From: Chiloscyllium plagiosum
Lineage: Eukaryota
Assembly: GCF_004010195.1 (NCBI RefSeq)
Contig: NC_057753.1
Span: forward strand, 14,649,366-14,700,361
Length of the DNA stretch: 50,996 nucleotides
Direction of reading: 5' to 3'
The notes beneath the pieces were generated by a model, which was given only the letters and a program-made list of their open reading frames with translations, was not told where the DNA came from and searched no databases. Positions 1 to 41,117 of the stretch are shown here, one piece after another (the first letter of the stretch is position 1; every line of letters starts with the position of its first letter). Made by a program: the position numbers and the translations under genes.

Positions 1-25
1 GGGACAAAGTTAACCGTGGTGCCAA
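1..25 (+). CDS. TRAJ: J0, family-B J segment cut by the window edge (...GTKLTVVP)
   Basis: GGGACAAAGTTAACCGTGGTGCCAA|GTAGGT. Confidence 0.8.
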
Positions 26-182
26 GTAGGTATTCAGAAACACCTCTATACTGTTGATGTCTATTATACGAGCGTCTTGTGTGTATAATTTCCTCTTTGT
101 AAAGCATCCACTGAGATCTCCACAGATGAAATTCATGTTGAATATCAAGCGTTTCCTGCCCCTTTGCTTTATAGAGTATAGA

Positions 183-208
183 GGAGAAAGTGAGGACTGC
201 AGATGCTG
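183..208. mobile_element. 26-bp truncated Penelope-like terminal fragment with 9-bp target-site duplication
   Basis: GGAGAAAGTGAGGACTGCAGATGCTG flanked by GAGTATAGA at 174-182 and 209-217; same sequence as the start of the 34204 insert. Confidence 0.7.
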
Positions 209-934
209 GAGTATAGACGCTACAGTGTCTGAGGCGATTAGTCTGTGTGGACTGAAATGAGGATTGCCTGGAGTTCATGGATGAAGGGGAATGGTTCAGG
301 GGGAAACGCAGGATAGAATCGGAGAGCTCAGGCAAGTGAGTTATCAAAGCAGTATCACTATCTAGTTTGAAAGAGCAAGTTGCTTCCACTGGGATGATTT
401 CAATTGACATTATCCTGATCTTCTCATTAATTCCTGAGTGCCAAGTTGATGTGTGTGAGTTCTGTCAATATGAACTGATGCCTGGACATCTCTGAGTATC
501 CCAGGTCCACACTTGTCCAGGTCACACTCAACACACTGAGATATGATTCATTAACCTGGCACTTTGATAGATTGGGGCCAGAGAGGAAGAGAGTGAGGAG
601 AGTGTCTCTGTGTTCAATGGAGGGACGCTACCTTAGATTGTTAACAGCAAATCTCACAGACTAATAACCGACTCTCGGAGTTTGGGTCAGACGGTGTGTG
701 AATATTGCGAAAGGGAAGGTAATTTTTGGAGGTCAGTCATGATTGAGGCTGGAGCACAGTGAGTGTTGGGTTCTGAGTGGACGACTTCAGGAAACTAACT
801 CCAACTCACGAAAATTGACTCTCATGAGTAACGTACATAACATGTGTGTCGTTTCATCCAAATGTTATTGGTGGGAGAGGGAAATAACAGTCACTAACTG
901 GGAGAGGGTTTTTGTCAGGAAGTGTAGGGTTTTT

Positions 935-993
935 TAAAAATAGCAGCGACAAGCTTATCTTTGGTGGTGGGACCAGACTGATTGTGGAGCCAA
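935..993 (+). pseudogene. TRAJ: J1, family A, KNSSDKLIFGGGTRLIVEP, heptamer destroyed
   Basis: Nonamer 907-915, 12 spacer, heptamer position reads GGTTTTT; donor GTCAGT. Confidence 0.8.
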
Positions 994-1364
994 GTCAGTG
1001 TTGGGGATTTTCACAGAATAATGTCCATGGGCTTGTGTTGGATAGTGACCACGAGTAGGTCAGCAGAGATAATAATTCCCCAGACCACAGATACGGTACA
1101 GCAAGGGATACCGTACTCAGGGTAAAATCCCCAGATTATCGGTGGGACTGACCCACCAGGCTCTCTGCTCTGAGTCAGGATCAAGATAATCCTTTTCTTT
1201 AGAAAAACAGATTCACATCAGTGCTCCTTTAGAAAATACTTCCACATTGTTAGTGTCTGTATCACAGCATTGAAAAATGGCATAGCATGTGCCCCAAGTG
1301 TACCCATCAGAGAATAAAGATCACTCCGCTGGGGTGGGTTTTTGCTGGGGGACGCAGTGCTGTG

Positions 1365-1430
1365 TGAATGCTGGAGGTGCTGCATATAAGCTTATCTTTG
1401 GAAAGGGGACAAAGTTAACCGTGGAACCAA
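1365..1430 (+). pseudogene. TRAJ: J2, family B, NAGGAAYKLIFGKGTKLTVEP, canonical donor lost
   Basis: RSS 1337-1364 intact; CCAA|TAGGTG lacks the G of GT. Confidence 0.75.
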
Positions 1431-1809
1431 TAGGTGTTCGGAAGCAATTCGACACTGCTTGTGTCTACTATGTTAGGGTGTTTTTTTACAAAGCATCTGC
1501 AGAGATCTCACATGTGAAATTCACCTTCAATATCAGACAGTTTCTGTCTCTTTGCTTCTTAGAGAACAGGTCTTACGACGTCTGTGGCAATTGGCCTGTG
1601 TGGATTGAAGTAGGACTTTTTCTGAGTTCCTGGGTGAGTGGGAAGGGTTTAGGGCAGACCCGGGATAGAATTGGATTGCGAAGTGGAGCAGTTCCACAAA
1701 GCAGCAGCCGTCCATTTGGACTGAGAAAGCTGCTTCCAGAGAGTACATTATTTCAATAGAACTTGTCTGGAGGTTCTCATTAATACCTGAGCTCCAAATT
1801 GATGCGTGT

Positions 1810-2570
1810 CATAGCCATAGAGTCATAGAGATATACAGCTTGGAAACAGACCCTTCAGTCCAAATTGTCCATGCTGACCAGATATCCCAACCCAATCTCA
1901 TCCCACCTGCCAGCACCCAGCCCATATCCCTCCAAACCCTTCCCATTCCTGTGCCCATCCAGATGCCTCTTAAATGTTGCAATTGTACCAGCCTCCACCA
2001 CTTCCTCTGGCAGCTCATTCCATCCACGTACCACCCTCTGCGTGAAGAACTTGCCCCTTAGGTCTCTTTTAGATCTTTCCCCTCTCACCCTAAACCTATG
2101 TCCTCTAGTTCTGGACTCCCCCACCCCAGGGAAGTGACTTATCCTATCCATGTCCCTCATGATTTTATAAACCTCTATAAGGTCACTCCTCAGCCTCCGA
2201 ATCTCCAGGGAAACCAGCCCCAACCTGTTCAACCTCTCCCTGTGGCTCAAATCCTCCAACCCTGGCAGCATCCTTGTGAATCTTTTCTGAACCCTTTCAA
2301 GTTTCACAACATCTTTCCGAAAGGAAGGAGACCAGAATTGCACGCAATATTCCAACAGTGGCCCTAACCAATGTCCTGTACAGCCGCAACATGACCTCCC
2401 ACCTCCTGTACTCAATACTCTGACCGATAAAGGAAAGCATACCAAACGCCGCCTTCACTATCCTATCTACCTGCGACTCCACTTTCATGGAGCTATGAAC
2501 CTGCACTCCAAGGTCTCTTTGTTCAGCAGCACTCCCTAGGACCTTACCATTAAGTGTATAAGTCCTGCCC
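1810..2570 (-). mobile_element. CR1/HER1-type LINE, 3' fragment (RT C-terminus + 3' UTR)
   Basis: ORF 1855-2445(-) PLLEYCVQFWSP...LERVQKRFTRMLPGL is a typical CR1 ORF2 end; interrupts the cassette spacer. Confidence 0.9.
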
Positions 2571-4885: not shown

Positions 4886-5675
4886 GTAGGTATTCAGTAA
4901 TACCTTTACACTGCTTATGTACATTATGTGAGTGCGTATCTCTGCAAAAAGCACCTCGACGTAGATTATGCCTCTTTGTTGTACAGAGTGTAGACCCTAC
5001 AATGTCTGAGGTCATTAGCCTGTGCGGACTGAAATGGTAATCCTCGCGAGTACCTGGATCGGGGGAAAAGTTCAGGACAAACCCAGGATAGAGTTAGGTA
5101 GTGAAACCTAGGTGGCTCGTCAAAGCAGGAACACTGTCCAGTTGGATAAAGAAAGCTGATCCCGCAGAGTACATGTTACAATAGAAATTATTGTGGGGTT
5201 CTCATTAATTCCTGAGCAGCAAATCGATGCGTGTGGTATCTGTAAATAGACAACAGTAGAAATCCCCAGGTCTGCCCTTGTCCAGGCCACACTCAAACCA
5301 CTGAGATATGATTCATTAATGTCGTTAGGGGGATAAAGGAAGCCAGAGAGGGAGGAGAGTCTATCTGTGTTAAAGGCATACACTCTCCCTTAGACTGCAA
5401 CAGTATATCTCACAGAATAATAACTGACTCTGGGAGACTGTTTAGGAACGTGTGTGTATATTGTGAATGGGAAGCAATCTTTTGGTATTCAATCCTGATT
5501 GAGTATGGAATCCACTAAGCGTTTAATTCTGAGTGGACAGCTTTAGGAAACTGATTCCAACTCATGAAAATAATGTCTTGATCAATGTATGTAAAATGGT
5601 GTACCCATCAGAGAATAAAGATGGTAATGATCACTCCTCTGGGGTGGGTTTTTTGCTGAGGGGCGCAGTGCTGTG

Positions 5676-5738
5676 TGAATGATGGAGCTGGTTATAAGCG
5701 TATGTTTGGACAGGGGACAAAGTTAACCGTGGAGCCAA
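5676..5738 (+). CDS. TRAJ: J7, family B, NDGAGYKRMFGQGTKLTVEP
   Basis: RSS 5648-5675; donor GTAGGT. Confidence 0.88.
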
Positions 5739-6360
5739 GTAGGTATTCAGAAACACCCCGACACAGCTTATGTCTACTATGAGGGTTTGTGTGTGTCTCC
5801 TCTGTCTGTGCAAAGCATCCATTAAGATCTCCTCATCTCAAATTCATCCTGAATGTCAGTCAGTTTCTGCCATTTTGCTTGATAGAGCATAGACCCTACA
5901 ATGTCTGAGGCGATTAGTCTGTGTGGACTGAAGTGGGAATCTTCCTGAGTACCTGGATCAGGGGGAATAATTCAGGGGAAACCCAGGATAGATAGCGAAG
6001 CTGAGAGGCAACTCAAAGCAGGAACACCGTCCAGCTGGATAGAGAAATCTCATACATTCATTGAAAAGAAATTATCGTGATGTTCTTAGGTAGAGCAGAG
6101 TAACATCCCCAGATTAGCGGTGCGGCTGACTCACCAGGCACCCTGCTTTGAGTTGGGAATGGAAGATTTTTTTTCTATTCAACATAAAAAGCCTTAATTC
6201 ACATCATCACTTGTTTAGAAAGTACTTCCACGGGTTTAGGGCCTTAAACACAATATTGAAGATTGGCATAGCGTGTGCCCCAAGTATACCCACCTGAGAA
6301 TACAGATGGTAATGAACGCTCCCACTGGGGTGGGTTTTTGCTGAGGGGCGCAGTGCTGTG

Positions 6361-6423: not shown

Positions 6424-7109
6424 GTAGGTATTCAGTAACGCCTCCAGCCCGTCCACTTTCTGATCCATTTTTTTTTATGGTCCCTATCCTGCCTGCAACG
6501 GTCCTCTCGATTTTCCCACCAGTGTCTTGATTTTTTTTCTCTCTCTCTCTCTCTCTGAGGCGAGGGGGACTGGCTAAGACGTACAATACCAGGCGAGTCG
6601 GGATTGGAGGGGATCCTGTATGAGCTTTAGCGGGATATTTGAGGGGAATGGAATGAGAGAGTTGGATGAAGAGAGCAGCAGACTTGCACTGAGAGGCGTA
6701 AATACTGGAGCTGACCGGTCGGAGTGAGAGACCTCTTTCCATCGTGTGAGTTATTTTCATTATCCACCGCCTTTTGACAAATCCCTCGACATCTGAGAAA
6801 TATTAGAGGCAGGTGGTGATTTCCGCTGACGTTTAGCAATCCTCGATCTTTTCCCATCTCCATACCATTTCCTGTGGAGGAGACAGAGGACTAAGATGTT
6901 TCTCTTTTTTTTTTCCAATATGATTTGTACAGTTATGACATGTGGAAGAAATACTGTATTGGAGGCAGTTGAGTGGAGGGTGACTCAGTTGATGCCAGAC
7001 ATGAGTCGGTTTTGTCTTAAGGTGGGAGACAGACTGGATTCGGCCCAATGGTGGTGGCATTGAATAATAAGATAAACTCTCAGTGATGTTAAAGGGGGGG
7101 GGGGGGGGG

Positions 7110-7127
7110 NNNNNNNNNNNNNNNNNN
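7110..7127. other. Assembly gap (18 N) next to a poly-G run
   Basis: Run of n. Confidence 1.
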
Positions 7128-7420
7128 GGTTATAGTTCCAGGATAAGGGGAAACGCAACTCGGAAGCAGAGACTGGGAGTAATGACTTCCCTCAAAGGGT
7201 GAATCTGTGGAACTCACTCCCCCCCCCCCCCCCTCTCCCCGGAGTGTGTTAGGTGCTGGGACGTAAAACAAATGTAACGCTGGACAGATTCTGGAACAGG
7301 AGGGTGATGGGGACATGGCAGGGAGAGCGGAGTTATGGCCTGGATGAAATTCGGCACAAACGCATGGAATGCAGGAGCAGGTGTGAGGGGCTGAATGGCC
7401 TCCTACTGCTCCTATGTTCT
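7128..7420 (+). mobile_element. Old CR1-type LINE 3' end fragment
   Basis: GTGAATCTGTGGAACTCACT...GGGCTGAATGGCCTCCTACTGCTCCTATGTTCT resembles a CR1 3' end; paralogous copy at ~20640-21020. Confidence 0.6.
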
Positions 7421-7466
7421 GTGTACCCACATCGGCTGGGTTTTTATGAAGGCCTGTCAGGCTGTG

Positions 7467-7529
7467 TGAACTATGGAGCTGGTACTCAGCTTATCTTTGG
7501 AGAGGGGACAAAGTTAACCATGGAGCCAA
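7467..7529 (+). CDS. TRAJ: J9, family-B-like, NYGAGTQLIFGEGTKLTMEP
   Basis: Distinct RSS 7439-7466 (GGTTTTTAT-gaaggcctgtca-GGCTGTG); donor GTAAGT. Confidence 0.85.
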
Positions 7530-9058: not shown

Positions 9059-9102
9059 GTAGGTATTCAGTAACACCTCTACACTGCTTACATCCATTAT
9101 AT

Positions 9103-19491: not shown

Positions 19492-19708
19492 GTAAGTATT
19501 CCTGGAGAATGTAGATGGTCAATCTATTTTCAGGCTGGAGCGTTCGCTTTCAGTCTTAATTCCCGACAAAAAAAAATGATAATTCTGCACGTTGACATAT
19601 CCTTGATAATTGGAACCCTTATGATTTCTCGATTATTCCTTTGTGGTTGAGGTGTGGCGTCAGTACAGATATGAAATCGGTTTCTTGAGTAAGCAGAATA
19701 TAATGGCA

Positions 19709-19911
19709 GTCAAAATGTGTGGTGCTGGAAAAGCACAGCAGGTCAGGCAGCATCCGAGGAGCAGGAGAGTCAGCGTTTAAGGCATAACGTTATTCCTGAT
19801 GAAGGGTTCATGCCCGAAACATTGACTCTTCCGCTCCTCGGATGCTGCCCTAACCAGCCTCCTCGCGTTTTTGACTCTGATCTCCAGCATCTGTAGCCCT
19901 CACTTTCTCCT
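19709..19911. mobile_element. Palindromic Penelope-derived short insert with hammerhead-like core
   Basis: CAGCATCCGAGGAGC...GCTCCTCGGATGCTG arms; CTGATGA 19796-19802, GAAA 19816-19819. Confidence 0.75.
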
Positions 19912-19968
19912 AGGATATAATGGCAGCTGGTCGAAGGCTGGGTTTTTGTTGTGGGGCGCAGTGCTGTG

Positions 19969-20031
19969 CGTATGCTGGAGCTACTGGCAAGCTTACCTTT
20001 GGAGAAGGGACCAAGTTGACCGTGGAGCCAA
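19969..20031 (+). CDS. TRAJ: J26, family B, YAGATGKLTFGEGTKLTVEP
   Basis: RSS 19941-19968; donor GTAGGT. Confidence 0.9.
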
Positions 20032-21635: not shown

Positions 21636-22263
21636 TGTGTGAAATTGGAGTCTTCCGGAGTACCTGACTCAGGGGAAACAGTTCAGGGGTGAGCAAGGAT
21701 AGAATGAAATAGCCTCTCAAAGCAGAAACGCTGTTGAGCTGGACTGAGAAAGTTATTTCCACAGGGAACATTGTTTCAATACAAGGTAGCAAGACATTCT
21801 CATTAATTCCTGAGCACCAAGTCAATGCGTGCAATTTCTGTAAATATGAACTGCTGTCTTGAAATCTTATTCAGAACAGACACAAACCACTGAGATATGA
21901 TTGGTTGTTGTGGTTAGGAGAATTAAGGGGGCCAGAGAGTGAGGACAAGCTGAGATGGATAGAGTGTACGTTAGTTTGCAACAGTAAATCTCACAGAATA
22001 ATACATAATCGTTGAAGTTTGTGTCAGACTGTTTCAGGATGTGTCGTACTTATTGTGAGAGGGAAGCTAATTTTCCGAAGTTGATTGAGAGAGGGATCCA
22101 GTGAGCGATGTGTTCCGAGTGGACAACTTTGGGAAAATGAGACCAACAATGTCATGAGCAATGTGTGTAAAATGGGTGCCATCTCGTTGAAATTGCATTG
22201 GAGTTGCAGACACAGAACAGCAGTAACTCAGAGACTGTTTTTGTGAGGAAGTGTAGGGCTGTG

Positions 22264-22323
22264 TGAGTGATATCACCAACAAGCTTATCTTTGGAGGTGG
22301 GACCAGGCTGATAGTGGAGCCAA
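22264..22323 (+). CDS. TRAJ: J28, family A, SDITNKLIFGGGTRLIVEP
   Basis: RSS 22236-22263; donor GTAAGT. Confidence 0.9.
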
Positions 22324-22699
22324 GTAAGTGTTGGGGATTTTCAGAAAATAACTTCAACGGGATTGTGATCACGAGTAGGTCAGCAGAGATAATAATTCCC
22401 CAGACCACAGATGCGGTACACCAAGGGCTACCCTACTTGGGGTAACATCCCCGGATTATCGGTGGGGTTGACGCACCAGATGCACTGCTCTGAGTTGGGA
22501 TCAGGAGGGTTTTATCAAAAAAGAAGATAGGGCCTATTTCACATCAGCACTGGCTTAGTAAATACTTCCACAGAGTTAGTATCTGTATCACAATATTTAA
22601 AAATTGCATAGCCTGTACCCTAAGGGTACCCACCAGAGCATAAAGGTGGTATTGATCACTCCACTGGGGTGGGTTTTTGCTAAAGGGTGCAGTGCTGTG

Positions 22700-22762
22700 T
22701 GAATGATGGAGCTGGTTATAAGCTTATCTTTGGAGAGGGGACAAAGTTAACCGTGGAGCCAA
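22700..22762 (+). CDS. TRAJ: J29, family B, NDGAGYKLIFGEGTKLTVEP
   Basis: RSS 22672-22699; donor GTAGGT. Confidence 0.9.
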
Positions 22763-23627
22763 GTAGGTATTCAGAAACACCCCGACACAGCTTATGTCTA
22801 TTACGAGAGTTTGTGTCTGTCTATTCTGTCGATGCAAAGCATCCATTAATATCTCAGCACGTGAAATTTATCTTGACTGTCAGTCGGACTCCACCTTTTT
22901 ACTTTATAGAGTATACACCCTACAATGTCTGGGGCAATTAGCCAGTGTGGATTGAAATGGGAATTTTCCTCAGCTCCTGGATCGGGGAATGGTTCAGAGG
23001 GAAACCTAGGATAGAATTAGATCGTGAAGCCGAGAGGGTCCTCAAAGCAGGAACATTGTCCAGTTGGACAGAGGAAATTCCTTCCACAGAGTACATTATT
23101 TCAATAGAAATTATTGTAATGTTGACATTAATTCCTGAACATCAAATCAAAGTGTTTGATTTCTGGATATATGAACCCATGCTTTGAAATTTACGTGTAA
23201 ATTAGGTCTGCACTTGTCCAGGTCACAGTCATACCATCTATGAATGCAGTTAGGTGGATGGAGACGGGTGGAGAGGGAGACAGTGAGGAGAGTCTATCTG
23301 TGTTTATGGCACAGGCTCTAACTTAGAGTACAACAGTAAATCTCACAGAATGATAACTGACTCTGGGAGTCTGGGTCAGACTGTTTCAGGATGTGTGCGA
23401 ATATGGTGAGAGGGAAGGTATTGTTTGGAAGTTGGTCATGATTGAGATTGGAATCCAACGAGTGTTCATTTCTGAGTGGACATCTTTAGGAAACTGATTC
23501 CAACGCACGAAAGTTATTTCACGGATAAAAATGAGTGCCATCTGCTTGAAATATTTATGGTAGTCCAGACACAGAACAGTCACTAATTGGGAGAAGGTTT
23601 TTTTTTGTCAGGAAGTGTAGGGCTGTG

Positions 23628-23684
23628 TGAATGAAGGCTTCAAGCTTATCTTTGGAGGTGGGACCAGACTGATAGTGAAACCAA
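23628..23684 (+). CDS. TRAJ: J30, family A, NEGFKLIFGGGTRLIVKP
   Basis: RSS 23600-23627 with expanded T run in nonamer; donor GTAAGT. Confidence 0.87.
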
Positions 23685-24070
23685 GTAAGTGTTGGGGATT
23701 GTCACAGAATAATGACCACGGGCTTGTGTTGGAGAGCCATCATGAATAGGTCAGCAGAGATAATAATTCCCCAGACTGCAGATATGATACTGCAAGGGAT
23801 ACCCTACACGGAGGAACATCCCCAGATTATCGGTGGGGCTGACACACTGGGCACTCTGCTCTGAGTTGGGACCAGAAGTTTGTTAAAAAAAAAGGAGGTA
23901 GACCTTAATTCACATCAGTGGTGGCTAAGCAAATACTTCCACAGTGTTAGAGACCTTATCACAGCACTGAACAACTCCATAACCTGTACCCCAGGTGTAC
24001 ACATCAGAGAATAAAGATGGTAATGATCACTCCTCTGGGGTGGGGTTTTGCTGAGGGGTGCAGTGCTGTG

Positions 24071-24134
24071 TGAATAATGGAGCTGGTTATAAGCTTATCT
24101 TTGGAGAAGGGGACAAAGTTAACCGTGGAGCCAA
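24071..24134 (+). pseudogene. TRAJ: J31, family B, +1 frameshift at FGEG
   Basis: TTTGGAGAAGGGGACAAAG; 64 nt instead of 63; could be a base-calling error; RSS 24043-24070. Confidence 0.75.
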
Positions 24135-24994
24135 GTAGGTATTCAGAAACACCCCGACACAGCCTATGTCTATTATGAGAGTTTGTGTGTGTCTATTCTG
24201 TCGATGCAAAGCACCCATTAAGATCTCAATATGTGTAATTCATCTTGACTTTCAGTCAGCTTATGCCTTTTTACTTTATAGAGTATAGACTCTACAGTGT
24301 CTGAGGCGATTAGTCTGTGTGGATTGAAGTGGGAATTTCCCTTAGCTCCTGGGTGAGGGAGAATGGTTCAGGGGAAACCCAGGATAGAATTCAATAGCGA
24401 AGTCGAGAGGCTCCTCAAAGCAGGAACACTGTCCAGTTGGACAGAGAAAATTCCTTCCGCAGAGTACATTATTACAAGAGAAATTATCGTGATGTTCACA
24501 TTAATTCCTGAGCATCAAATCAAAGTGTTTGATTTCCGGATATATGAACCGATGCTTTGAAATCTCCATGTGGCCGAGGTCTGCACTTGTCCAGGCCACA
24601 GTCAAACCATCTATTAATGCAGTTAGGTGGATGGAGACGGGTGGAGAGGGAGACAGTGAGGAGAGTCTATTTGTGCTAACGACATATGCTCTACCTTTGA
24701 TTGCAACAGTAAATCTCACGGTGTAATAAGTGACTCTGGGAGTCTGGGTCAGACTGTTTAAGGATGTGTGTGAATATGGTGAGAGGGAAGGTAATATTTG
24801 GAAGTTGGTCATGATTGAGATTGGAATCCAATGAGTGTTCGTTTCCGAGTGGACAACTTTAGGAAACTGATTCCAACGCATGGAAGTAATTTCATGGATA
24901 AAATGGGTACCATCTGGTTGAAATGGTCATAGCGGTCCAAACACAGAACAGACACTAACTGGGAGAGGTTTTTGTCAGGAAGTGTAGGGCTGTG

Positions 24995-25051
24995 TGAATG
25001 ATGGCTTGAAGCTTATCTTTGGTGGTGGGACCAGACTGATAGTGGAGCCAA
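24995..25051 (+). CDS. TRAJ: J32, family A, NDGLKLIFGGGTRLIVEP
   Basis: RSS 24967-24994; donor GTAAGT. Confidence 0.9.
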
Positions 25052-25436
25052 GTAAGTTTTGGGGATTTTCACAGAATAATGTCCACGGGCTTGGGTTGGA
25101 TAGTGCTCATGAGTAGGTCCGAAGAGATAATAATTTCCCAGGCCAGCGATACGGTACAGACGGGATGCCATATTCAGAGTAACATCCCCAGACTATCGGT
25201 GGGGCTGATACACCGGGCACTCTGCTCTGAGTTGAGATCAGAAGTTTTTTTTTAACAAAATAGGAGGTAGACCCTAATTCACATCCGTGGTGGCTAAGAA
25301 AATACCTCCACAGTGTTAGAGACCTTGTCACAGCATTGAACAGTTGCATAACCTGTACCCCCAAGTGTACCCATCAGAGCATAAAGAGGGTAATGATCAC
25401 AGCACTGGGGTTTTTGCTGAGGGGTGCAGTGCTGTG

Positions 25437-25502
25437 TGAATGCTGGAGCAACTGGTTATGGACTTATCTTTGGCGAGGGGACAAAGTTAATTGTGGAGCC
25501 AA
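25437..25502 (+). CDS. TRAJ: J33, family B, NAGATGYGLIFGEGTKLIVEP
   Basis: RSS 25409-25436; donor GTAGGT. Confidence 0.9.
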
Positions 25503-26393
25503 GTAGGTATTCAGAAACACCCCGACACAGCTTATGTCTATTATGAGAGTTTGTGCCTGTCTATTCTATCTGTGCAAAGCATCCATTAAGATCTCCTCAT
25601 GTGAAAGTCATCTTGAATATCAGTCAGTTTCTTTTGCCTTATAGAGTATAGACTCTACAGTGTCTGAGGCGATTAGTCTGTGTGGACTGAAGTGGGAATC
25701 TTCCTGATCTCCTGGGTGAGGGGGAATGGTTCAGGGGAAACCCAGGATAGAATTCAATAGCGAAGCTGAGAGGCAACTCATAGCACCAACACCGTCCAGT
25801 TGGATAGAGAAATCTATCCAATGAAACGAAATTATCGTGATGTCTTTATTAATTCCTGAGCTGAGAAAAAAATTATCGTGATGTTTTAATTCATTCCTCA
25901 GCATCAAATCAAACTGTTTGATTTCTGGATATATAAACTGATGCCTTAAAATGTCTGTACAGCCCAGGTCAGAACCTCTCCAACGGACACTCACACCACT
26001 GAGATAGGATTCATTAATGGGGTGGGTGGATGAGACGGGCAGAGAGGGAGGCAGTGAGGAGACTCTAGCTGTGTTAAAAGCATACACCCGACCTTAGTTA
26101 GCAAATGTATATCTCACAGAATAATAACTGACTCTGGTAGTCTAGGTCAGATTGCTTACAGACATTTGTGAATATTATGAGAAGGAAGGTAATTTTTTGG
26201 AGGTGGGTCGTGATTTCGAGTGGAATCCGTGAGTTTTGGTTTCTGAGTGGACAACTTTAGGAAACTGATTCCACTACATGGAAGTAATTTCATGGATATA
26301 ATGGGTGTCATCTGGTTGAAATGGTTATGGTTATCCAGACAAAGAACAGACACTAACTGGGACACGGTTTTTGTCAGGAAGTGTAGGGCTGTG

Positions 26394-26453
26394 TGAGTGA
26401 TGGTACCAACAAGCTTATCTTCGGAGGTGGGACCAGACTGATGGTGGAGCCAA
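26394..26453 (+). CDS. TRAJ: J34, family A, SDGTNKLIFGGGTRLMVEP
   Basis: RSS 26366-26393; donor GTAAGT. Confidence 0.9.
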
Positions 26454-26840
26454 GTAAGTGTTGAGGATTGTCACAGAATAATGTCTATGGGCTTGTGTTG
26501 GATGGCGACCATGAGTAGGTCAGCAGAGATAATAATTCCCCAGACCACAGATATGGTACAGTAAGGATATCATACTTGGGGTAACATCCCCAGGTTGGCA
26601 GTGAGGCTGACACACCAGGAGCTCTGCTCTGAGTTGGGACGGAGGTTTCCTTTTTAAAATAGGAGGTAGACCCTAATTCACATCAGCAGTGACTAAGAAA
26701 TGACTTCCACAGTGTTAGAGACCTTATCACATCATTGAAAAATTTACATAACCTGTACCCCCAAGTGTACCCACCAGAGAATAAAGATGGTAATGATCAC
26801 GCCACTGGGGTGGGTTTTTGCTAAGGGGTGCAGTGCTGTG

Positions 26841-26906
26841 TGAATACTAGAGCAGTTGGTTATGGACTTACCTTTGGCAAAGGGACAAAGTTAACCGTGG
26901 AGCCAA
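26841..26906 (+). CDS. TRAJ: J35, family B, NTRAVGYGLTFGKGTKLTVEP
   Basis: RSS 26813-26840; donor GTAGGT. Confidence 0.9.
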
Positions 26907-27759
26907 GTAGGTATTCAGAAACACCCCTACACTGCTTATGTCTATTATGAGAGTTTGTGTGATCTATTCTATCTGTGCAAAGCACCCATTAAGATCTCAA
27001 CATGTGAAATTGATCTTGACTGTCAGGCGGACTCTACCTTTATACTTTATAGAGTATAGACCCTACAGTGTCTGAGGCGATCAGCCTGTGTGGATTGAAG
27101 TGGGAATTTTCCTGAGTACCTGGATGAGGGAGAATGGTTCAGGGGAAACCCACGATAGAATTCAAAAGCAAAGCCGAGAGGCTCCTCAAAGCAGGAACAC
27201 TGTCCAGTTGGACAGAGAAAATTCCTTCCGCAGAGTACATTATTACAAGAGAAATTATCGTGATGTTCACATTAATTTCTGAGCATCAAATCGAAGTGTT
27301 TGATTTCCGGATATATGAACTGATGCCTTGAAATCTCCGTGTGGCCGAGGTCTGCACTTGTCCAGGCCACAGTCAAACCATCTATTAATGCAGTTAGGTG
27401 GATGGAGATGGGTGGAGAGGGAGACAGTGAGGAGAGTCTATCTGTGTTAATGGCACAGGCTCTAACTTAGAGTACAACAGTAAATCTCACGGTGTAATAA
27501 GTGACTCTGGGAGCCTGGGTCAGACTGTTTAAGGACCTGTGCGAATATGGTGAGAGGGAAGGTAATTTTTGGAAGTCGGTCACGATTGAGATTGCAATCC
27601 AATGAGTGTTCGCTTCTGAGTGGACAACTTTAGGAAACTGATTTCAAAGCATGGAAGTAATTTCATTGATAAAATGGGTGGTGAAAGTGGTTATAGTGGT
27701 CCAGACACAGAACAGTCACTAACTAGGAGAGGGTTTTTGTCAGGAAGTGTAGGGTTGTG

Positions 27760-27816
27760 TGAATGATGGCTTCAAGCTTATCTTTGGAGGTGGGACGAGA
27801 CTGATAGTGGAACCAA
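27760..27816 (+). CDS. TRAJ: J36, family A, NDGFKLIFGGGTRLIVEP
   Basis: RSS 27732-27759 (heptamer GGTTGTG); donor GTAAGT. Confidence 0.86.
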
Positions 27817-28206
27817 GTAAGTTTTGGGATTTGCACAGAATAATATCCATGGGCTTGTGTTGGATAGCGATCATGAGTAGGTCAGCAGAGATAATAATTC
27901 CCCAGGCCACAGATACGGGACAGCAAGGGATATCATAATCGGGGTAACATCCCCAGATTATTGGTGGGGCTGAACCACCAGGCACTCTGCTCTGAGTTGG
28001 GAACAGAAGTTTTTGTTTCACAGAAAGTAGGAGGTAGACCCTAACTGACATCAGTGGTGGCTAAGAAAATACCTCCACAGCATTAGAGACCTTATCACAG
28101 CAGTGAACAAGTCCATATCCTGTAACCCAGGTGTACCCATCAGAGAATAAAGATGGTAATGATCACTCCTCTGGGGTGGGTTTTTGCTGAGGGGCGCAGT
28201 TCTGTG

Positions 28207-28269
28207 TGAATGCTGAAGCTGGTTATAAGCGTATCTTTGGAGAGGGGACAAAGTTAACCGTGGAGCCAA
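28207..28269 (+). CDS. TRAJ: J37, family B, NAEAGYKRIFGEGTKLTVEP
   Basis: RSS 28179-28206 (heptamer TTCTGTG); donor GTAGGT. Confidence 0.87.
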
Positions 28270-29114
28270 GTAGGTATTCAGAAACACCCCGACACAGCTT
28301 ATGTCTATTATGAGAGTTTGTGTGTGTGTTTTCTGTCTGTGCAAAGCATCCATTAAGATCTTCTCATCTCAAATTCATCCTGAATGTCAGTCAGTTTCTG
28401 CCATTTTGCTTGATAGAGTATAGACCCTACAATGTCTGAGGTGATTAGTCTGTGTGGACTGAAGTGGGAATCTTCCTGAGTACCTGGATCAAGGGGAATA
28501 ATTCAGGGCAAATCCAGGATAGATAGCGAAGCTGAGAGGCAACTCAAAGCAGGAACCCCGTGCAGTTGGATAGAGAAATCTCATACATTCAGTGAAAAGA
28601 AATTATCGTGAGGTTTTTGTTCATTCCTGAGCATCAAATCAAAGTATTTGATTTCTGGATATATAAACGGGTGCCTTAAAATGTCTGTACAGCCCAGGTC
28701 AGAACCTCTCCAGCAGACACTCATACCACTGAGATAGGATTCATTAATGGGGTGGGTGGGTGAGACGGGCAGAGAGGGAGGCAGTGAGGAGACTCTATCT
28801 GTGTTAAAGGCATACACCCGACCTTAGTTTGCAACAGTATATCTCACAGAATAATAACTGACTCTGGTAGTCTAGGTCAGACTGCTTACAGACATTTGTG
28901 AATATTGTGAGAAGGAAGGTAATTTTTGGAGGTGGGTCGTGATTTCGAGTGGAATCCATGAGTGTTGGTTTCCGAGTGGACAACTTTAGGAAACTGATTC
29001 CACTACATGAGAATAATTTCATGAACAAAATGGGTGCCATCTGTTTGAAATTTTTTGGTGGTGCAGACAAAGAACAGACACTAACTGGGAGAAGGGTTTT
29101 GTCAGGAAGTGTAG

Positions 29115-29162
29115 GCTATAAGCTTATCTTTGGAGGTGGGACGAGACTGATAGTGGAGCCAA
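29115..29162 (+). pseudogene. TRAJ: J38, family A, heptamer and 5' codons deleted (..YKLIFGGGTRLIVEP)
   Basis: Nonamer + spacer 29094-29114 run straight into GCTATAAGCTT. Confidence 0.82.
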
Positions 29163-29565
29163 GTAAGTGTTGGGGATTCAACTGAATTTAATTCAATTCA
29201 CTGAATCACTTCCACGGGCTTGTGTTGGATAGCGATCACGAGTAGGTCAGTAGAGATAATAATTCCCCAGACCGCAGATGCAGTACAGCAAGGGATACCG
29301 TACTCAGAATAACATCCCCAAATTATTGGTGGGGCTGACCCACCAGGCGCTCTGCTCTGTGTTGGGATCAGAAGTTTTATTAAAAATAGGAGGTAGACGC
29401 TACCCAACATCAGAGGTGGCTATGAAAATACTTCCACAGCGTTAGAGACCTTGTCACTGTATTGAATAATTGAGGAGCCTGTACCCCAGGTGTACCCACC
29501 ACCGCATTAAGATGGTAATGATCACGCCACTGGGGTGGGTTTTTGCTAAGGGGTGCAGTGCTGTG

Positions 29566-29628
29566 TGAACGATGGAGCTGGTTATGGACTTACCTTTGGA
29601 CAGGGGACAAAGTTAACCGTGGAGCCAA
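29566..29628 (+). CDS. TRAJ: J39, family B, NDGAGYGLTFGQGTKLTVEP
   Basis: RSS 29538-29565; donor GTAGGT. Confidence 0.9.
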
Positions 29629-30480
29629 GTAGGTATTCAGAAACACCCCAACACAGCTTATATACTTTATGAGAGTTTGTGTGTGTCTATTCTATCTATG
29701 CAAAGCATCCATTAAGATCTCCTCATCTGAAATTCATCTTAAATCTCAATCAGTTTCTGCCGTTTTGCTTCATGGAGTATAGATCCTACAGTGTCTGAGG
29801 CGATTAGTCTGTGTGGACTGAAGTGGGAATCTTCCTGAGTACCTGGGTCGGGGGAAGGTTTTGAGAGAAACCCAGGATAGAGTTAGGTAGCGAAACTGAG
29901 GGGCAACTCAAAGCAGGAACATCGTGCAGTTGGATAGAGAAACCGCGTACATTCATTGCAAAGAAATTATGATGATGTTCTCATTAATTCGTGACCATCA
30001 AATCGAAGTGTTTGATTTCCGGATATATGAACCGATGCTTTGAAATCTCTGTGTGGTCGAGGTCTGCACTTGTCTAGGCCACACTCAAACCATCTATGAA
30101 TGCAGTTAGGTGGATGGAGACGGGTGGAGAGGGAGACAGTGAGGAGAGTCTATTTGTGTTAACGGCACAGGCCACAGCTTAGAGTACAACAGTAAATCTC
30201 ACAGAATGATAACTGACTCTGGGAGTCTGGGTCAGACAGTTTAAGGATGTGTGTGTGAATATGGTGAGAGGGAAGGTAATTTTTGGAAGTTGGTCATGAT
30301 TAAGATTGGAATCCAATGAGTGTTCGTTTCTGATTGGACATCTTTAGGAAACTGATTCCAACGCATGGAAGTAATTTCATGGATAAAGTTGGTGCCATCT
30401 GGTTGAAATGGTTATGGGAGTACAGGCAAAAAACAGACACTAACTGGGAGAGGGTTTTTGTCAGCAAGTGTAGGGCTGTG

Positions 30481-30537
30481 TGAATGATGCCTACGGCTTT
30501 ACCTTTGGAGATGGGACCAGACTGATAGTGGAGCCAA
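30481..30537 (+). CDS. TRAJ: J40, family A, NDAYGFTFGDGTRLIVEP
   Basis: RSS 30453-30480; donor GTAAGT. Confidence 0.9.
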
Positions 30538-30925
30538 GTAAGTGTTGGGGATTGTCACAGAATAATGTCCACAGGTTTGTGTTGGATAGCGACTATGAGT
30601 AGGTCAGCAGTGATAATAATTCCCCAGACCATGGATACAATACAGCAAGGGGTACTGTACTCGGGGTAACATCTCCGGATTATTTGTGGGGCTGACACAC
30701 CAGACACTCTGCTCTGAGTTGGGATCAGAAGGTCTTTTTTGAAAAAGTAGGAGGTAGACCCTAATTCACTTCCGTGGTGGCTAAGAAAATACCTTCACAG
30801 TGTTAGAGACCTTATCACAGCACTGAACAACTGCATAACCTGTACCCCAAGTGAACCCAGCAGAGCATAAAGATGGTAATGATCACTCCACAGGGGTGGG
30901 TTTTTCTGAGGGACGCAGTGCTGTG

Positions 30926-30988
30926 TGAATACTAGAACTGGTTATAAGCTTATCTTTGGAGAAGGGACAAAGTTAACCGTGGAGCCAA
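30926..30988 (+). CDS. TRAJ: J41, family B, NTRTGYKLIFGEGTKLTVEP
   Basis: Heptamer 30919-30925; nonamer altered (GGGTTTTTC); donor GTAGGT. Confidence 0.82.
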
Positions 30989-31060
30989 GTAGGTATTCAG
31001 AAACACCCCAACACAGCTTATGTCTATTATGAGAGTTTGTGTCTGTCTATTCTAGCTGTG

Positions 31061-31368
31061 GGTGGCACGGTGGCACAGTGGTTAGCACTGCTGCCTCACA
31101 GCGCCTGAGACCCAGGTTCAATTCCCGCCTCAGGCGACTGACTGTGTGGAGTTTGCACGTTCTCCCCCTGTCTGCGTGGGTTTCCTCCGGGTGCTCCGGT
31201 TTCCTCCCACAGTCCAAAGATGTGCAGGTCAGGTGAATTGGCCATGCTAAATTGCCCATAGTGTTAGGTAAGGGGTAAATGTAGGGGTATGGGTGGGTTG
31301 CGCTTCGGCGGGTCGGTGTGGACTTGTTGGGCCGAAGGGCCTGTTTCCACACTGTAATGTAATGTAAT
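31061..31368 (+). mobile_element. Full-length HE1-type (V-SINE) elasmobranch SINE
   Basis: tRNA-like head TGGCACAGTGG...GGTTCAATTCC; V-domain TGCGTGGGTTTCCTCCGGGTGCTCCGGTTTCCTCCCAC; (TGTAA)n tail; CTGTG on both sides. Confidence 0.9.
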
Positions 31369-32161: not shown

Positions 32162-32218
32162 TGAGTGATGGCTACACCTTTATCTTTGGAGGTGGGACCA
32201 GACTGATAGTGGAGCCAA
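32162..32218 (+). CDS. TRAJ: J42, family A, SDGYTFIFGGGTRLIVEP
   Basis: RSS 32134-32161; donor GTAAGT. Confidence 0.9.
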
Positions 32219-32567
32219 GTAAGTGTTGGTACTTGCACAGAATAATGTCCATGGGCTTGTGTTGGATAGCGATCACGAGTAGGTCAGCAGAGATAATAAT
32301 TCCCCAGACCACAGATACGGTACACCAAGGGATATTGTACTCGGGGGAACATCCCCAGATTATGTTGGGGCTGACACACCGGGTGCTCTGCTCTGAGTTG
32401 GGATCAGAAGTTTTATTTAAAGTGGGAGGTAGACCATAATACACATCAGTGGTGGCTAAGAAAATACTTCCGCAGTGTTAGAGACCTTATCACAGCATTG
32501 AATAATTGAGTAGCCAGTACCCCAAGTGTACCCACCAGCGCATTAAGATGGCAATGATCACTCCACT

Positions 32568-32672
32568 GATGGAGTTGGTTATAAGCATATCTTTGGAGAG
32601 GGGACAAAGTTAACCGTGGAGCTGGTTATGGACTTGTCCTGGGAGAAGGGACAAAGTTAACCGTGGAGCCAA
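32568..32672 (+). pseudogene. TRAJ: J43, RSS-less out-of-frame fusion of two family-B Js (DGVGYKHIFGEGTKLTVE / GAGYGLVLGEGTKLTVEP)
   Basis: CTCCACTG joined to ATGGAGTT with the whole RSS missing; two FR4 copies overlap at TGGAGC. Confidence 0.85.
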
Positions 32673-33531
32673 GTAGGTATTCAGAAACACCCCGACAAAG
32701 CTTATGTCTATTATGAGAGTTTATGTGTGTCCATTCTGTCGATGCAAAGCATCCATTAAGATCTCAACATGTGTAATTCATCTTGACTTTCAGTCAGCTG
32801 CTGCCATTTTGCTTTATAGAGTATAGACTCTACAGTGTCTGAGGCGATTAGTCTGTGTGGATTGAAGTGGGAATTTTCCTTAACTCCTTGGTGAGGGGGA
32901 ATGGTTCAGTGGAAACCCAGGATAGAATTCAATAGTGAAGCCGAGAGGCTCCTCAAAGCAGGAACACTGTCCAGTTGGACAGAGAAAATTCCTTCCACAC
33001 AGTACATTATTACAAGAGAAATTATCGTGATGTTCACATTAATTCCTGAGCATCAAATCAAAGTGTTTGATTTCTGGATATATGAACCGATGCTTTGAAA
33101 TCTCTGAGTGGCCGAGGTCTGCACTTGTCCAGGCCACACTCAAACCATCTATTAATGCAGTTAGGTGGATGGAGACGGGTGGAGAGGGAGACAGTGAGGA
33201 GAGTCTATTTGTGTTAACGGCATAGGCTCCAGCTCAGAGTACAACAGTAAATCTCACAGAATGATAACTGACTCTGAGAGCCTGGGTCAGACTGTTTAAG
33301 GATGTGTGCAAATATGGTGAGAGGGAAGGTAAGTTTTGGTAGTCGGTCACGATTGAGATTGCAATCCAATGAGTGTTCGATTCTGAGTGGACAACTTTAG
33401 GAAACTGATTTCAAAGCATGGAAGTAATTTCATTGATAAAATGGGTGCCATCTGGTTGAAATGGTTGTGGTGGTCCAGACAAAAACAGACAGCAACTGGG
33501 AGAGGTTTTTGTCAGGAAGTGTAGGGCTGTG

Positions 33532-39136: not shown

Positions 39137-39196
39137 TGAATTATGATAGCTACAAGCTTCTCTTTGGAGGTGGGACCAGACTGATCGTGCAGCCAC
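39137..39196 (+). CDS. TRAJ: J53, family A, NYDSYKLLFGGGTRLIVQP
   Basis: RSS 39109-39136 (heptamer GGCCGTG); donor GTAAGT. Confidence 0.85.
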
Positions 39197-39429
39197 GTAA
39201 GTGCTCACGGAATAATGTCCACAGGTTTGTGTTGGATAGCGATGATGAGTGACCAATCCTGGGAGAACGTGGAGTAAACTTTGGAAGGGAAATCTCTTAC
39301 GCTCAACAATGTTCATCTTTCCCCCATGGGACGAGACAGGCAGATGGTTTCACGAAATTAGGAAACCATTAGTGGCCCTAGCGTCCAGGCTATTAGATTG
39401 GAGATGCATCTATTATGAGATAAACTTTC

Positions 39430-39750
39430 ACCAGTCCATGCCGAACATAATCCCAAACTACTCTAGTCCCTCCTGCCCATTCCTGGCCCGTATCCCTCCA
39501 AACCTTTCCTACTCATGCCTCCATCCAAATGTCGTTCAAACGTTGTAATTGTACCCATACCCATCACTTCCTTAAGAGGTTCATTCGACACGTGCACCAC
39601 TCCCTGCGTTAAAAAATTCCCAACATGTCCCTTTTGAATCTTTCTCCTCTCACCTTAAAAGTGTGGCCCCGTCTCTTGAAAGCCCACACGCCCTAGGGAA
39701 AGCACTCTGCCATTCACCTTATCAATTCCACGCATGATTTTCTAAAACTT
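39430..39750 (-). mobile_element. Old CR1/HER1-type 3' fragment
   Basis: Similar to 1870-2170 (TATCCCTCCAAACC...TCTCACCTTAAA...ATGATTTT). Confidence 0.65.
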
Positions 39751-39804
39751 CGATGTCATTAGCACCGGATGTAACGTGGTGGGCTGCCCGCTTTTAAATT
39801 GCTC

Positions 39805-40800
39805 TGAATTGAATTGAATTGAATTTACTGCCGAGCGCACAATGAAAAGCTTTGTCTTGCGAGCAATACAGGCAGATCGCGGAGTTAATTAGCGTAGAGA
39901 AGTAAGTAATAGGTCAACAGCGGCAAACGCCAAAACACAGGCACAGGTGAAGGTTAAGAGTTTGTGAGCCCATTCAGTATTCTAACAACAGTAGGGGAGA
40001 AACTGTTTTGAAACCGGCTGGTGCATGTGTCCAGGCTTCTCCCCGATGGTAGAGGTTGTAGGAAAAACATTGCCGGGGTGGGATGGATCTTTGAGAATGC
40101 TGGTGGCCTTTCCTTGACAGCGGGGCCTGGTAGGTGGATTCTATAGATGGGAGATTGGGCCTTTGTGATTATCTGGGCCGAGTTCACCACTCTCTGTAAC
40201 CGCCTCCGGTTTTGGTTGCCATACCAGGGAGTGATACACCCAGACAGAGTGCTCTCGATGGCGCACCTATAAAAGTTGGCAAGGGGGATTCACCGTCATG
40301 CCCAAATTTCCTCAGCTGCCCGAGGAAGAAGAGACGTTGTTGGGCCTTTGTAACCAGTGCGTCCACATGAAGAGTCCGAGAAAGCATGTTGTGGATGACC
40401 AGTCCACTCGTTGCTGTTAATGTGTAGGGGGATGTAACATCCCGCCGAAAGTCAATAATGAGTTCCTTGGATTTGCCGGCATTGAGAGCTAGGTTGTTCT
40501 CAGGGCACCATTTTTCCAGGTCTTCCACCTCCCGGCTGTAGTCTGTTTCATCGCTATCTGAGATTCGACCAGTGGTGGTGTCAACAGAGAACTTGTAAAT
40601 GGCATTAGTCTGGTATTTGGCGACGCAGTCATGGGTATACAGTGAGCACAGTAGGGGGCTGAGTACGCACCCCTTGGGGGGGGCTCCAGTGTTGAGTGTT
40701 AGTGAGGATAAGCTACTGTCCCCAATCTTCACTGATTGTGGCCTGTGGGTCAGGAAACTGAGGGTCCAGTTGGCGAGAGTGGGGCTTAGTGCGAGATCAC
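39805..40800 (-). mobile_element. Rex1/Babar-like LINE 3' fragment
   Basis: ORF 40184-40822(-) [36 protein letters not shown]; (TGAAT)n tail at 39805-39825. Confidence 0.8.
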
Positions 40801-40866
40801 TGGAAGTACAGATAAAGAACAAGGACTAACTCAGAGAGGGTTTTTGTCAGGAAGTGTAGGGCTGTG

Positions 40867-40926
40867 TGAATGTTGGCATCAACAAGCTTATCTTTGGAGC
40901 TGGGACCAGACTGATAGTGAAGCCAA
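40867..40926 (+). CDS. TRAJ: J54, family A, NVGINKLIFGAGTRLIVKP
   Basis: RSS 40839-40866; donor GTAAGT. Confidence 0.9.
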
Positions 40927-41117
40927 GTAAGTGTTGGGGATTTTCACACAATAATGTGGGTTTGATGAACAGAATGACCCTCAGTGAGACAGCAGAGGTA
41001 ACTCGGGAAGCGTTGAGGTGAAATGAAGCCAGTGTAATGAGGGTAAGGGCTGTGTTAGTGCTGGGAGATTGGGAAATGGGCCCACCTTGAGTTCTCGTTC
41101 AGGGATGAGACACTGTG

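Follow-up and report, generated by a model that had tools for sequence, protein, structure and literature searches.

The TRAJ cluster of Chiloscyllium plagiosum consists largely of copies of a 1.37-kb cassette

We analysed a stretch of 50,996 bp from Chiloscyllium plagiosum (the window) and consider it highly probable that the T-cell receptor alpha J (TRAJ) cluster consists mostly of copies of one 1.37-kb unit, comprising a dead J, a J of family A and a J of family B, that was multiplied, patched by gene conversion and shaped by selection. The identity as TRAJ, the unit, its colinearity with a related species, the mosaic make-up of the units, the slow change of RSS and FR4 and the fast change of CDR3 codons were observed directly. 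Jawed vertebrates carry tens to more than 100 J-alpha segments. To our knowledge, the spacers between them are too old to align in most studied species, so that neither array growth nor selection on germline J tips can be read directly there. In the shark array, approximately 35 co-duplicated spacers provide a built-in, near-neutral clock and the dead Js serve as controls, and J birth, death, conversion and CDR3 selection become measurable.

A BLAST catalogue with natural J copies as queries comprises 27 A and 28 B loci in positions 1–40960, one B being truncated by a gap at the window start. A low-score hit at 707 and two low-score upstream 'A' matches were excluded because they are copies of the fossil third J. 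Neighbouring loci alternate between A and B in 45 of 54 cases (shuffle mean 27.5; none of 100,000 shuffles reached 45). The A starts at 22264, 23628, 24995, 26394, 27760, 29115 (a pseudogene) and 30481 give a mean period of 1369.5 bp. A first-pass annotation had described this alternation, the period of ~1.37 kb and the alignable spacers, and its A starts agree with ours. Its A-to-B distance of ~440 bp was borne out (20 of 22 gaps within 410–460 bp, median 436 bp), whereas its ~930 bp from B to the next A holds for only 12 of 23 gaps (890–960 bp; median 947 bp), the remainder containing insertions or deletions. The features are as follows (window coordinates).

1..40960, + strand: 3' portion of the TRAJ cluster's A/B cassette block, which starts ~30 kb upstream of the window
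21955..31060, + strand: most regular run of complete cassettes, within the younger sub-clade
24741..24836, + strand: example of the fossil J 'C', with a decayed 12-RSS and a KxIFGS-like frame, ~230 bp before A
24967..25051, + strand: example of a family-A J, with 12-RSS heptamer GGCTGTG, a 57-nt J (NDGLKLIFGGGTRLIVEP) and a GT donor
25058..25214, + strand: example of tract E1 behind the A donor; TAGGTCA has one mismatch in this copy
25409..25502, + strand: example of a family-B J, with 12-RSS heptamer TGCTGTG, a 66-nt J (NAGATGYGLIFGEGTKLIVEP) and a GT donor
22700..22762, + strand: B J that a contig of run X19 (organism C) shows joined, at its 3' end, to the first exon of TRAC
935..993, + strand: pseudo-A, heptamer lost, frameshift
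8718, 29115 and 37787: further pseudo-A loci
24071..24134, + strand: pseudo-B with a 1-nt frameshift
1365, 32588 and 38205: other non-intact B loci, with donor lost, RSS deleted and heptamer changed, respectively
19502..20031, + strand: spacer of the B-B' sub-module with its B' J (19969); seven other spacer copies lie upstream of the window
6443..7529, + strand: B'' J (7467); its ~1-kb non-cassette flank recurs (67%) at 20049–21032 and in one upstream copy
5598..6080, + strand: exchange tract holding a B J, 95.7% identical to 28130–28611, 22.5 kb away
1..1176, + strand: third copy of a 2.8-kb dimer of recent origin; a stretch 5.1 kb upstream is 96% identical
41091..44340, + strand: older non-cassette Js 3' of the block, at 42816, 43023 (heptamer CACTGAG) and 44276
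near 41119 and 41475, + strand: probable pseudo-Js within 41091..44340

The majority line of the cassette (1389 bp) covers 79% of positions 1–40960 and 98% of 21500–31050; its matches in the flanking old J region are almost exclusively J exons and RSSs. The whole block extends from -30 to +41 kb and contains 94 loci, approximately 72% of the ~131 TRAJ segments. The tandem amplification of a ~1.37-kb unit proposed by the first-pass annotation is thus supported, whereas its 'just two founder Js' is not: the unit also holds the dead third J (23 hits in the window; glycine lost, stop or donor lesion), the B-B' sub-module (8 copies) and the B'' flank (3 copies) have non-cassette spacers of their own, and about 37 older, unrelated Js lie on the flanks of the block. 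Judged by a heptamer ending in GTG, FGxGT, an open frame and a GT donor, 46 of the 55 loci in the window are intact (A 23/27, B 23/28), and 16 of the 94 across the block are not. The intact Js differ from one another in DNA in 78 of 78 cases and in peptide in 77 of 78. We discounted a cryptic CACAGTG in spacer S1, since the majority reads CACAGGG and CACAGTG occurs in only 5 of 35 copies. An Rfam scan of 21900–31000 gave no match at E ≤ 1. The + strand of the window is G-skewed.

The array is a TRAJ cluster, as the first-pass annotation had supposed. Upstream of it lie V genes on the - strand (-132 to -298 kb), then a 12-RSS/D/23-RSS element at -97.2 kb, followed by about 10 Js (TRDJ) and a C exon. 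This exon, at -80 kb, carries the published TRDC signature, is 54% identical to a TCR-delta-type chain and has a TM exon at -78 kb; by the signature and tblastn with stored chains we identify it as TRDC, and the J array lies 3' of it. TRAC (CLATDYF) is located on an unplaced contig, C93099, with one terminal J 2.4 kb upstream, and is 74% identical to H. ocellatum TRA (TM exon 94%). The C exon to which B22700 is spliced in the related shark is TRAC, 18 of 20 loose letters matching the exon start; this evidence is a single contig of organism C from X19, a run that we assumed, as a guess, to be RNA. B-type and A-type Js also precede C-alpha in database alpha chains, and C. punctatum has its colinear Js 5' of TRAC. 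The Js have a 12-RSS 5' of the coding end with a nonamer near the consensus and a heptamer GGCTGTG (A) or TGCTGTG (B) rather than CACTGTG, an FGxG motif and 34 nt from F to the GT donor. No Ig-like ORF was found inside the block; the unit is J-only and therefore not a V-(D)-J-C minicluster. On the window scaffold, phmmer and motif scans found no TRAC or other C exon in the 90 kb downstream, the Pfam profile PF09291 had no match in the genome, and a C1-set profile had none near the window among the matches listed (150 of 625 candidates scored). A TM-like motif at +58.4 kb was rejected as an in-frame chance occurrence within a retroelement.

An assembly expansion of the whole array is extremely unlikely. 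The assembly is fragmented, with N gaps within the block, no single contig spans the compared stretch 21500–31100, and an unplaced contig of 1.56 kb matches the dimer at the window start with 96–99% identity. Against it, the units differ from each other by 16–27%, and in the read comparison, which covered 21500–31100, DNA runs X3 and X10 covered all 30 bins, with position-specific pieces at 99% (X3) and 95% (X10). Eight X3 pieces among the matches listed differ at 30 of 2831 bases. An independent C. punctatum assembly has the same spacing pattern, and 77 of 88 C. punctatum Js, placed by their published TRAJ coordinates, form a colinear chain (score 186.9, compared with 55–77 in 12 shuffles). 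With ~24% divergence between units, their presence in an independent animal and this colinearity, we regard an assembly expansion as refuted for the entire array, except for the number of copies of the 96–99% dimer near the window start.

The spacers differ between units by a median of p = 0.24 (JC 0.29), compared with 0.054–0.063 to positional matches in two related organisms. The expansion is therefore not the recent one that had been suggested; by this yardstick the age of the main burst is estimated at about five times that of the split from the related sharks. For the yardstick the longest pieces among the matches listed were used (8 per run, likeness at least 90%), some of which could be paralogues, and a first spacer matrix, inflated by insertions, was replaced with a projected alignment. 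Absolute dating with the pedigree rate of the epaulette shark, 7e-10 per generation in the available extract of PMC10587355, gave an implausible 100–200 million generations, so that only relative ages are used. The deep tree of units is star-like, and monophyly of A and B is weakly marked over 97 columns (B 1 change, support 45/81; A 2 changes). Of the proposed unit-by-unit reconstruction, the sub-clades resolve, among them a younger one of 8 units (starts 21955–33204, spacer p 0.11–0.23), but basal supports are 6–58% and the units are mosaic. Published counts are 156 and 84 Js in two Hemiscylliidae, whereas nurse shark has 63, zebra shark 73 and catshark 66 (PMC10322711, Suppl. Table 4). Cassette amplification offers an explanation for the high counts, and the early burst probably occurred in the lineage of the bamboo-shark family. 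Part of the expansion may predate the family, because B-type and A-type Js occur in alpha chains of other sharks. Duplicates, pseudogenes, the fossil C and lineage-specific gains and losses make the array a variant of the known birth-and-death of Js; relative to C. punctatum, units are skipped on each side, some of which may be explained by assembly gaps.

The cassette units are mosaics. Incompatibility was lower between near sites than between far ones (0.264 versus 0.280 with E1 and E2 left out, p = 0.0005; 0.304 versus 0.409 in the young clade), and clonal simulations (n = 5) did not reproduce this gap. In spacer S2 alone the recombination test was not significant (p = 0.95). The similarity of units did not decay with distance (Mantel rho 0.08, p = 0.21, on an alignment that included non-homologous insertions), which counts against simple duplication of neighbours, since similarity would then fall with distance. 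The identity between 5598–6080 and 28130–28611 is best read as a recent non-adjacent exchange. Behind each A, the 160-bp tract E1 appears homogenised: its distances are 0.136 within the young clade, 0.127 between young and old and 0.115 among old units, and none of 158 sites is clade-diagnostic, whereas other spacers differ by 0.15–0.18 within and 0.25–0.29 between clades. Array-wide conversion of a tract consisting of A-FR4 and E1 would account for this. Tract histories thus differ from those of their flanks; this concerted evolution is only partial, the spacers still being ~24% diverged.

RSS and FR4 evolve slowly, while CDR3 codons, which encode the antigen-contacting tips of the Js, outpace the spacers. 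In CDR3, pN is 0.30–0.35, compared with a flank p of 0.18–0.23 and an FR4 pN of 0.02–0.05, and omega is 2–3 in germline CDR3 codons and 0.1–0.2 in FR4. The corresponding tests are modest (2dL 3.4, 4.8 and 7.3) and were calculated on trees of the flanks, which can inflate omega because the units are mosaic, with copies of other length excluded (27 of 46 intact B used). An excess of pN over pS is not secure for A57 or B66, and for B only 93% of spacer windows lie below the CDR3 window. In a neutral expansion the CDR3 excess would instead reflect mutation bias through AID-type hotspots, short tandem codon slippage or alignment error. CDR3 is indeed rich in WRCY/RGYW (11–13 per 100 nt versus 6.5–7 under synonymous recoding), its length varies in codons, and spacer WRC/GYW sites are slightly more variable (pi 0.30 versus 0.27, p = 0.04). 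This hotspot effect of 13% is, however, too small for a 1.5- to 2.3-fold parsimony excess, and in three of four groups synonymous CDR3 sites (pS 0.16–0.21) do not rise above the flanks, with non-synonymous values about twice as high. Moreover, only 18% of spacer indels are multiples of 3, whereas 79 of the 82 J loci whose heptamer is usable are in frame. We therefore judge mutation bias alone to be improbable; diversifying selection on germline CDR3-alpha is likely.

Tract E1 has low divergence across the array, lacks clade signal and is exclusive to it (all 38 hits on contigs C44 or C48232). Of 35 copies, 31 contain TAGGTCA and 27 contain AGATAA; we take these to be RORE-like and GATA motifs, and ACCACA to be RUNX-like. 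The cassette might double as a regulatory module, with E1 being an element of RORgamma-t and GATA type, under purifying selection, that acts locally as a germline promoter or controls accessibility; this we put forward tentatively, as a minority reading. Equally doubtful is its corollary that each duplication copied the Js along with their own switch. In favour, E1 is nearer to the majority than other spacers in 34 of 34 units, those with a dead A included, and the retention of TAGGTCA exceeds that of all 955 background 7-mers and is joint first among 151 E1 7-mers. Among the old Js, TAGGTCAG occurs four times on the + strand, 69–417 bp before the next J. Local promoters at mouse J-alpha segments and TEA (PMC3005232, in the available extract) are a possible parallel by analogy, and a title in the reference list of PMC2213269 has RORgammaT binding the TEA promoter. 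On the other hand, the missing clade signal fits conversion better than a slower rate, ACCACA does not surpass the median E1 word in retention (rank 78 of 152), cross-species pieces including E1 are not less diverged (26/309 and 17/233 versus 3–5% elsewhere), and the G-skew of the + strand biases motif counts. Less probable still is the full chain in which bamboo sharks approximately doubled their J-alpha repertoire by amplifying a self-contained module of two Js and their own RORgamma-t-type accessibility element, with conversion keeping element and framework uniform and positive selection rewriting the CDR3 tips. If true, the array would document for the first time at sequence level how a large set of J-alpha segments is built up together with its stepwise promoters; a promoter role of E1 would also tie the growth of the array to the regulation of serial J-alpha rearrangement.

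Based on the array and its spacers we propose the following history. The unit was likely multiplied by unequal crossing-over, a misaligned exchange between units out of register, in an early burst; local sub-bursts would have come later, with units still being gained and lost. Gene conversion would then have patched the units, including A-FR4 plus E1 array-wide. Selection, meanwhile, is likely to have conserved the recombination signals and the framework and to have driven diversification of the CDR3 tips. By analogy with TRA in other vertebrates, where this is established, a larger J set would allow a greater number of V-J combinations and additional rounds of secondary rearrangement.

As far as the available extracts of the cited papers go, the cluster shares with the vertebrate TRA/TRD translocon and shark TRAJ (Giorgetti et al. 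2023, PMC10322711) the order 5'-TRDC-(TRAJ)n, probably followed by TRAC, the 12-RSS, in a primordial phase with a TG start, FGxG and the 34 nt from F to the donor; J number and spacing resemble C. punctatum. That source gives coordinates and counts, and a repeated cassette, a fossil J, spacer homology and selection on J CDR3 are not among the features described in its extracts. In Atlantic salmon (PMC8559430) J number was likewise raised by duplication, with many near-identical J pairs, but the extracts report no alignable multi-J unit in tens of copies. Cartilaginous-fish Ig miniclusters (V-D-J-C, PMC12227049) also grow by copying a multi-element block, whereas the shark unit contains no V, D or C and lies inside one translocon in which all Js presumably share one C. 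Germline J-encoded CDR3-alpha residues are also under selection in human TRAJ37 (PMC13396459), there as allelic balancing selection on one gene, here as divergence of ~80 paralogues measured against co-duplicated spacers. A motif search found no J sequences in the nurse-shark eLife supplements or Nature supplement 15. In the matching range of C. punctatum, 42 of 69 Js are labelled F in the published table.

Positions 1–40960 of the window are organized in a repeated unit of ~1.37 kb (the cassette) with two J families, A and B. Self-comparison revealed diagonal repeats at multiples of ~1.37 kb with identities of 68–84%. A scan for RSS plus FGxG detected J segments on the + strand only, all with 12-bp spacers. 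The similarity catalogue, from which one weak match at 707 was left out, contains 27 A and 28 B loci within positions 1–40960. Neighbours belong to different families in 45 of 54 cases (27.5 on average after shuffling, none of 100,000 shuffles as high), with A to B distances of 410–460 bp in 20 of 22 cases and B to A distances of 890–960 bp in 12 of 23. The counts, alternation and coordinates of the first-pass annotation are correct. By an RSS, frame and donor rule, 46 of the 55 window loci are intact. The whole A/B block extends from −30 to +41 kb (upstream and downstream of the window start) and comprises 94 loci, 78 of them intact. Together with 30 listed old Js (unrelated Js flanking the block), six found via a profile and one on an unplaced contig, this amounts to ~131 TRAJ, with an A/B share of ~72%. 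The old Js are for the most part single-copy, with few pairs, and their heptamers are mostly close to consensus (14 of 30 read CACTGTG); the heptamers of the cassette families are GGCTGTG (A) and TGCTGTG (B).

In the source assembly, the flanks examined reach 300 kb to the 5' side of the window and 90 kb to its 3' side.

Features around the window (kb relative to the window start)
−132 to −298 kb, − strand: TCR-type V exons
−97.2 kb: D with 12- and 23-RSS
97–87 kb upstream (flanking pieces L001–L002): ~10 Js between D and constant exon
−80 kb: constant exon with a CLxxxFxP signature, 54% identical to a delta-type chain
−78 kb: TM exon of the upstream constant region
−58.4 to +44.3 kb: J run

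CLxxxFxP is the signature given for TRDC (PMC10322711). No C exon 3' of the J run was found in the 90 kb downstream on the window's scaffold. Using a database alpha chain, we located TRAC on the unplaced contig C93099 (74% identity to H. ocellatum C-alpha), where one J precedes it by 2.4 kb. A contig from run X19 (organism C, a related shark) departs from the window precisely at the end of the B segment starting at 22700, and its next 20 letters match the TRAC exon start at 18 positions. Because of this join and the TRDC-signature exon upstream, the window Js are TRAJ, as the first-pass annotation had it, and no C exon of another kind came to light in the 90 kb 3' of the window; TRAC itself lies on C93099, apart from the window's scaffold. 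The V exons (L021–L037, ~132–298 kb upstream) are opposite in strand to D-J-C, so joining would be by inversion; this orientation could be a scaffolding effect. One of them, at ~−297.7 kb, is VH-like. The ~10 TRDJ after a single detected D exceed the number in many vertebrates.

The median p between the projected spacers of 29 units is 0.239 (5–95%: 0.163–0.269), and each of the 30 bins of 21500–31100 is covered in two DNA runs. Among the eight longest pieces listed per run, the difference from this stretch is 1.1% for X3 (organism A), 5.4% for X10 (organism B, also a related shark) and 6.3% for X19. In C. punctatum, TRAJ gaps are 449, 898, 453, 931, 453, 922, 451 and so on (PMC10322711 supplement 15, part 1). 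A chain alignment of gaps and J lengths with J11–J100 of that list, minus J86 and J87, matched 77 of 88 rows with a score of 186.9, compared with 55–77 for 12 shuffles. One unit of the regular run and several elsewhere are partnerless in these rows, which may reflect true gain or loss or assembly gaps. Since the units are diverged, two DNA runs cover those of 21500–31100 and the C. punctatum TRAJ are colinear, the array is no artefact of assembly expansion, the rival raised in the first-pass annotation. Copy number is uncertain only for a 96–99% dimer around the window start.

The expansion had been described as recent. The unit-to-unit JC distance of 0.29, however, is ~5 times the 0.055–0.066 to organisms B and C, which does not support that description. 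Absolute dating by a pedigree mutation rate yielded implausibly large ages, and no date is given. Pattern-based J counts in supplement 17 of PMC10322711 (H. ocellatum 156, C. punctatum 84, nurse shark 63, zebra shark 73, catshark 66) point to an expansion at family level. A wholly family-specific origin is counted against by differing B-type Js on two of four alpha chains with distant C-alpha and by A-like Js on zebra-shark and catshark models. In the catshark model P0010 the translated read-through 5' of J, ..AVWGCVN.., is as expected from an A-type RSS (heptamer GGCTGTG), hinting that this non-consensus heptamer is ancient. Older small duplications appear as tree pairs and trios in the upstream old-J region (−56.5/−54.1 kb, −56.1/−51.5 kb, −45.4 to −39.3 kb), which suggests that this process had already run in earlier rounds.

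The units are mosaic. The closest relative of a unit shifts along its length, and tracts of 95–96% identity link units 22–43 kb apart. Compatibility between neighbouring sites exceeds that under permutation (p = 0.0005 when the low-divergence tracts E1 and E2 are left out); the excess is not significant within the spacer S2 alone, and clonal simulations gave no such gap. The spacer tree is star-like, with internal branches making up 19% of its length. The earlier expectation of a history readable unit by unit stands for the supported local clades (22–30 kb plus 36.7 kb; 9.7–17.5 kb; −25 to −18 kb; one 2% pair) and fails at the base (supports 6–58%); because the units are mosaic, such a reconstruction will require tract-level methods.

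In 34 of 34 units, including those with a dead A, E1 (the 160 bp 3' of the A donor) has diverged less than the other spacers. As it lacks clade signal, conversion across the array, starting from the nearly identical FR4, fits better than slow evolution. The best-kept word in E1 is TAGGTCA (31 of 35 copies), alongside AGATAA (27 of 35); the two are putative ROR and GATA sites. Local promoters are known for mouse J-alpha segments (PMC3005232), and a title cited in PMC2213269 reports RORgammaT binding at TEA. A promoter role of E1 is a putative and rather doubtful lead. The second tract, E2, lies ~45–75 bp 5' of each B RSS (e.g. 25360–25408), also without clade signal. It contains AATAAA in 26 of 40 copies and is retained even where the remaining cassette is deleted.

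The proposal of just two founder Js is too simple, since the unit contains a third J and B occurs in extra spacer contexts. A decayed J (fossil C) ~230 bp 5' of A was detected with a profile from old Js alone, its single scores being weak (reversed control up to 7.5 bits). The majority sequence of 39 upstream flanks, VNIVRGKLIFGSWS*LRVESN, found its best match in the old J located at −37.8 kb, with a score of 98 versus a shuffle maximum of 61. Fossil C has 35 matches in the block, 23 of them in the window, and changes at the spacer rate; the FGSG frame is open in a single copy out of 32, which has no donor. Lesions common to the copies (TGA in 18 of 33, TGG for GGG in 10 of 34, a degenerate nonamer) suggest that it died before the amplification or early in it. 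The B-B' module (eight copies) and B'' flank (three copies) have their own spacers, and the module partly matches DNA adjoining a B-like old J located at −33.7 kb.

Per-column diversity is 0.05–0.09 in nonamers, heptamers and FR4 and 0.20–0.28 in spacers. The 5' CDR3 part reaches 0.45 (A) and 0.34 (B), values attained by 0.4% and 6.9% of spacer windows, respectively. In four equal-length groups of 15, 17, 36 and 7 Js, CDR3 pN is 0.30–0.35 and pS 0.16–0.31, flank p is 0.18–0.23 and FR4 pN 0.02–0.05; CDR3 pN exceeded the flank in 150 of 150 bootstraps in every group. Codon models on flank trees gave an omega of 0.1–0.2 for FR4 and of 3, 2 and 2 for CDR3 (2dL 3.4, 4.8 and 7.3; 15, 16 and 27 Js). 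Diversifying selection on CDR3 is probable, a grade we do not raise because mosaic trees can inflate omega. AID hotspot words are enriched over synonymous recoding in the CDR3 portions of the A, B and old Js, although the copies do not count as independent. The enrichment is notable, as TCR-alpha of the nurse shark undergoes hypermutation (PMC5931798).

Based on these results we propose that units would be copied by unequal crossing-over and patched by conversion, with purifying selection acting on RSS, FR4 and frame and diversifying selection on CDR3. The benefit may lie in combinatorial diversity and secondary rearrangement. The cassette array is real and is a form of known J birth-and-death. 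Large TRAJ clusters, J duplication and the J counts of these sharks are already published. In the literature searched, no title or abstract describes the cassette, which may nonetheless have been mentioned before.

Short deletions at the RSS or J account for the pseudogenes at 29115, 32588 and 8718; at 29115 and 8718 the deletions seem to be bounded by short direct repeats, consistent with slippage. A 3-nt insertion within the A segment at 23628 (position 23640) is present in both X3 and X10 contigs and may be an allele that differs in CDR3 length or a misplaced paralogue. Minisatellites of 52 and 32 bp occur in common repeats beside assembly gaps (43509–44093, 44944–45478, 50679–50996). A C2H2 zinc-finger ORF lies 116 kb downstream, and a LINE-like element is found on the − strand (L017 5390–6472; L011 5400–7500).
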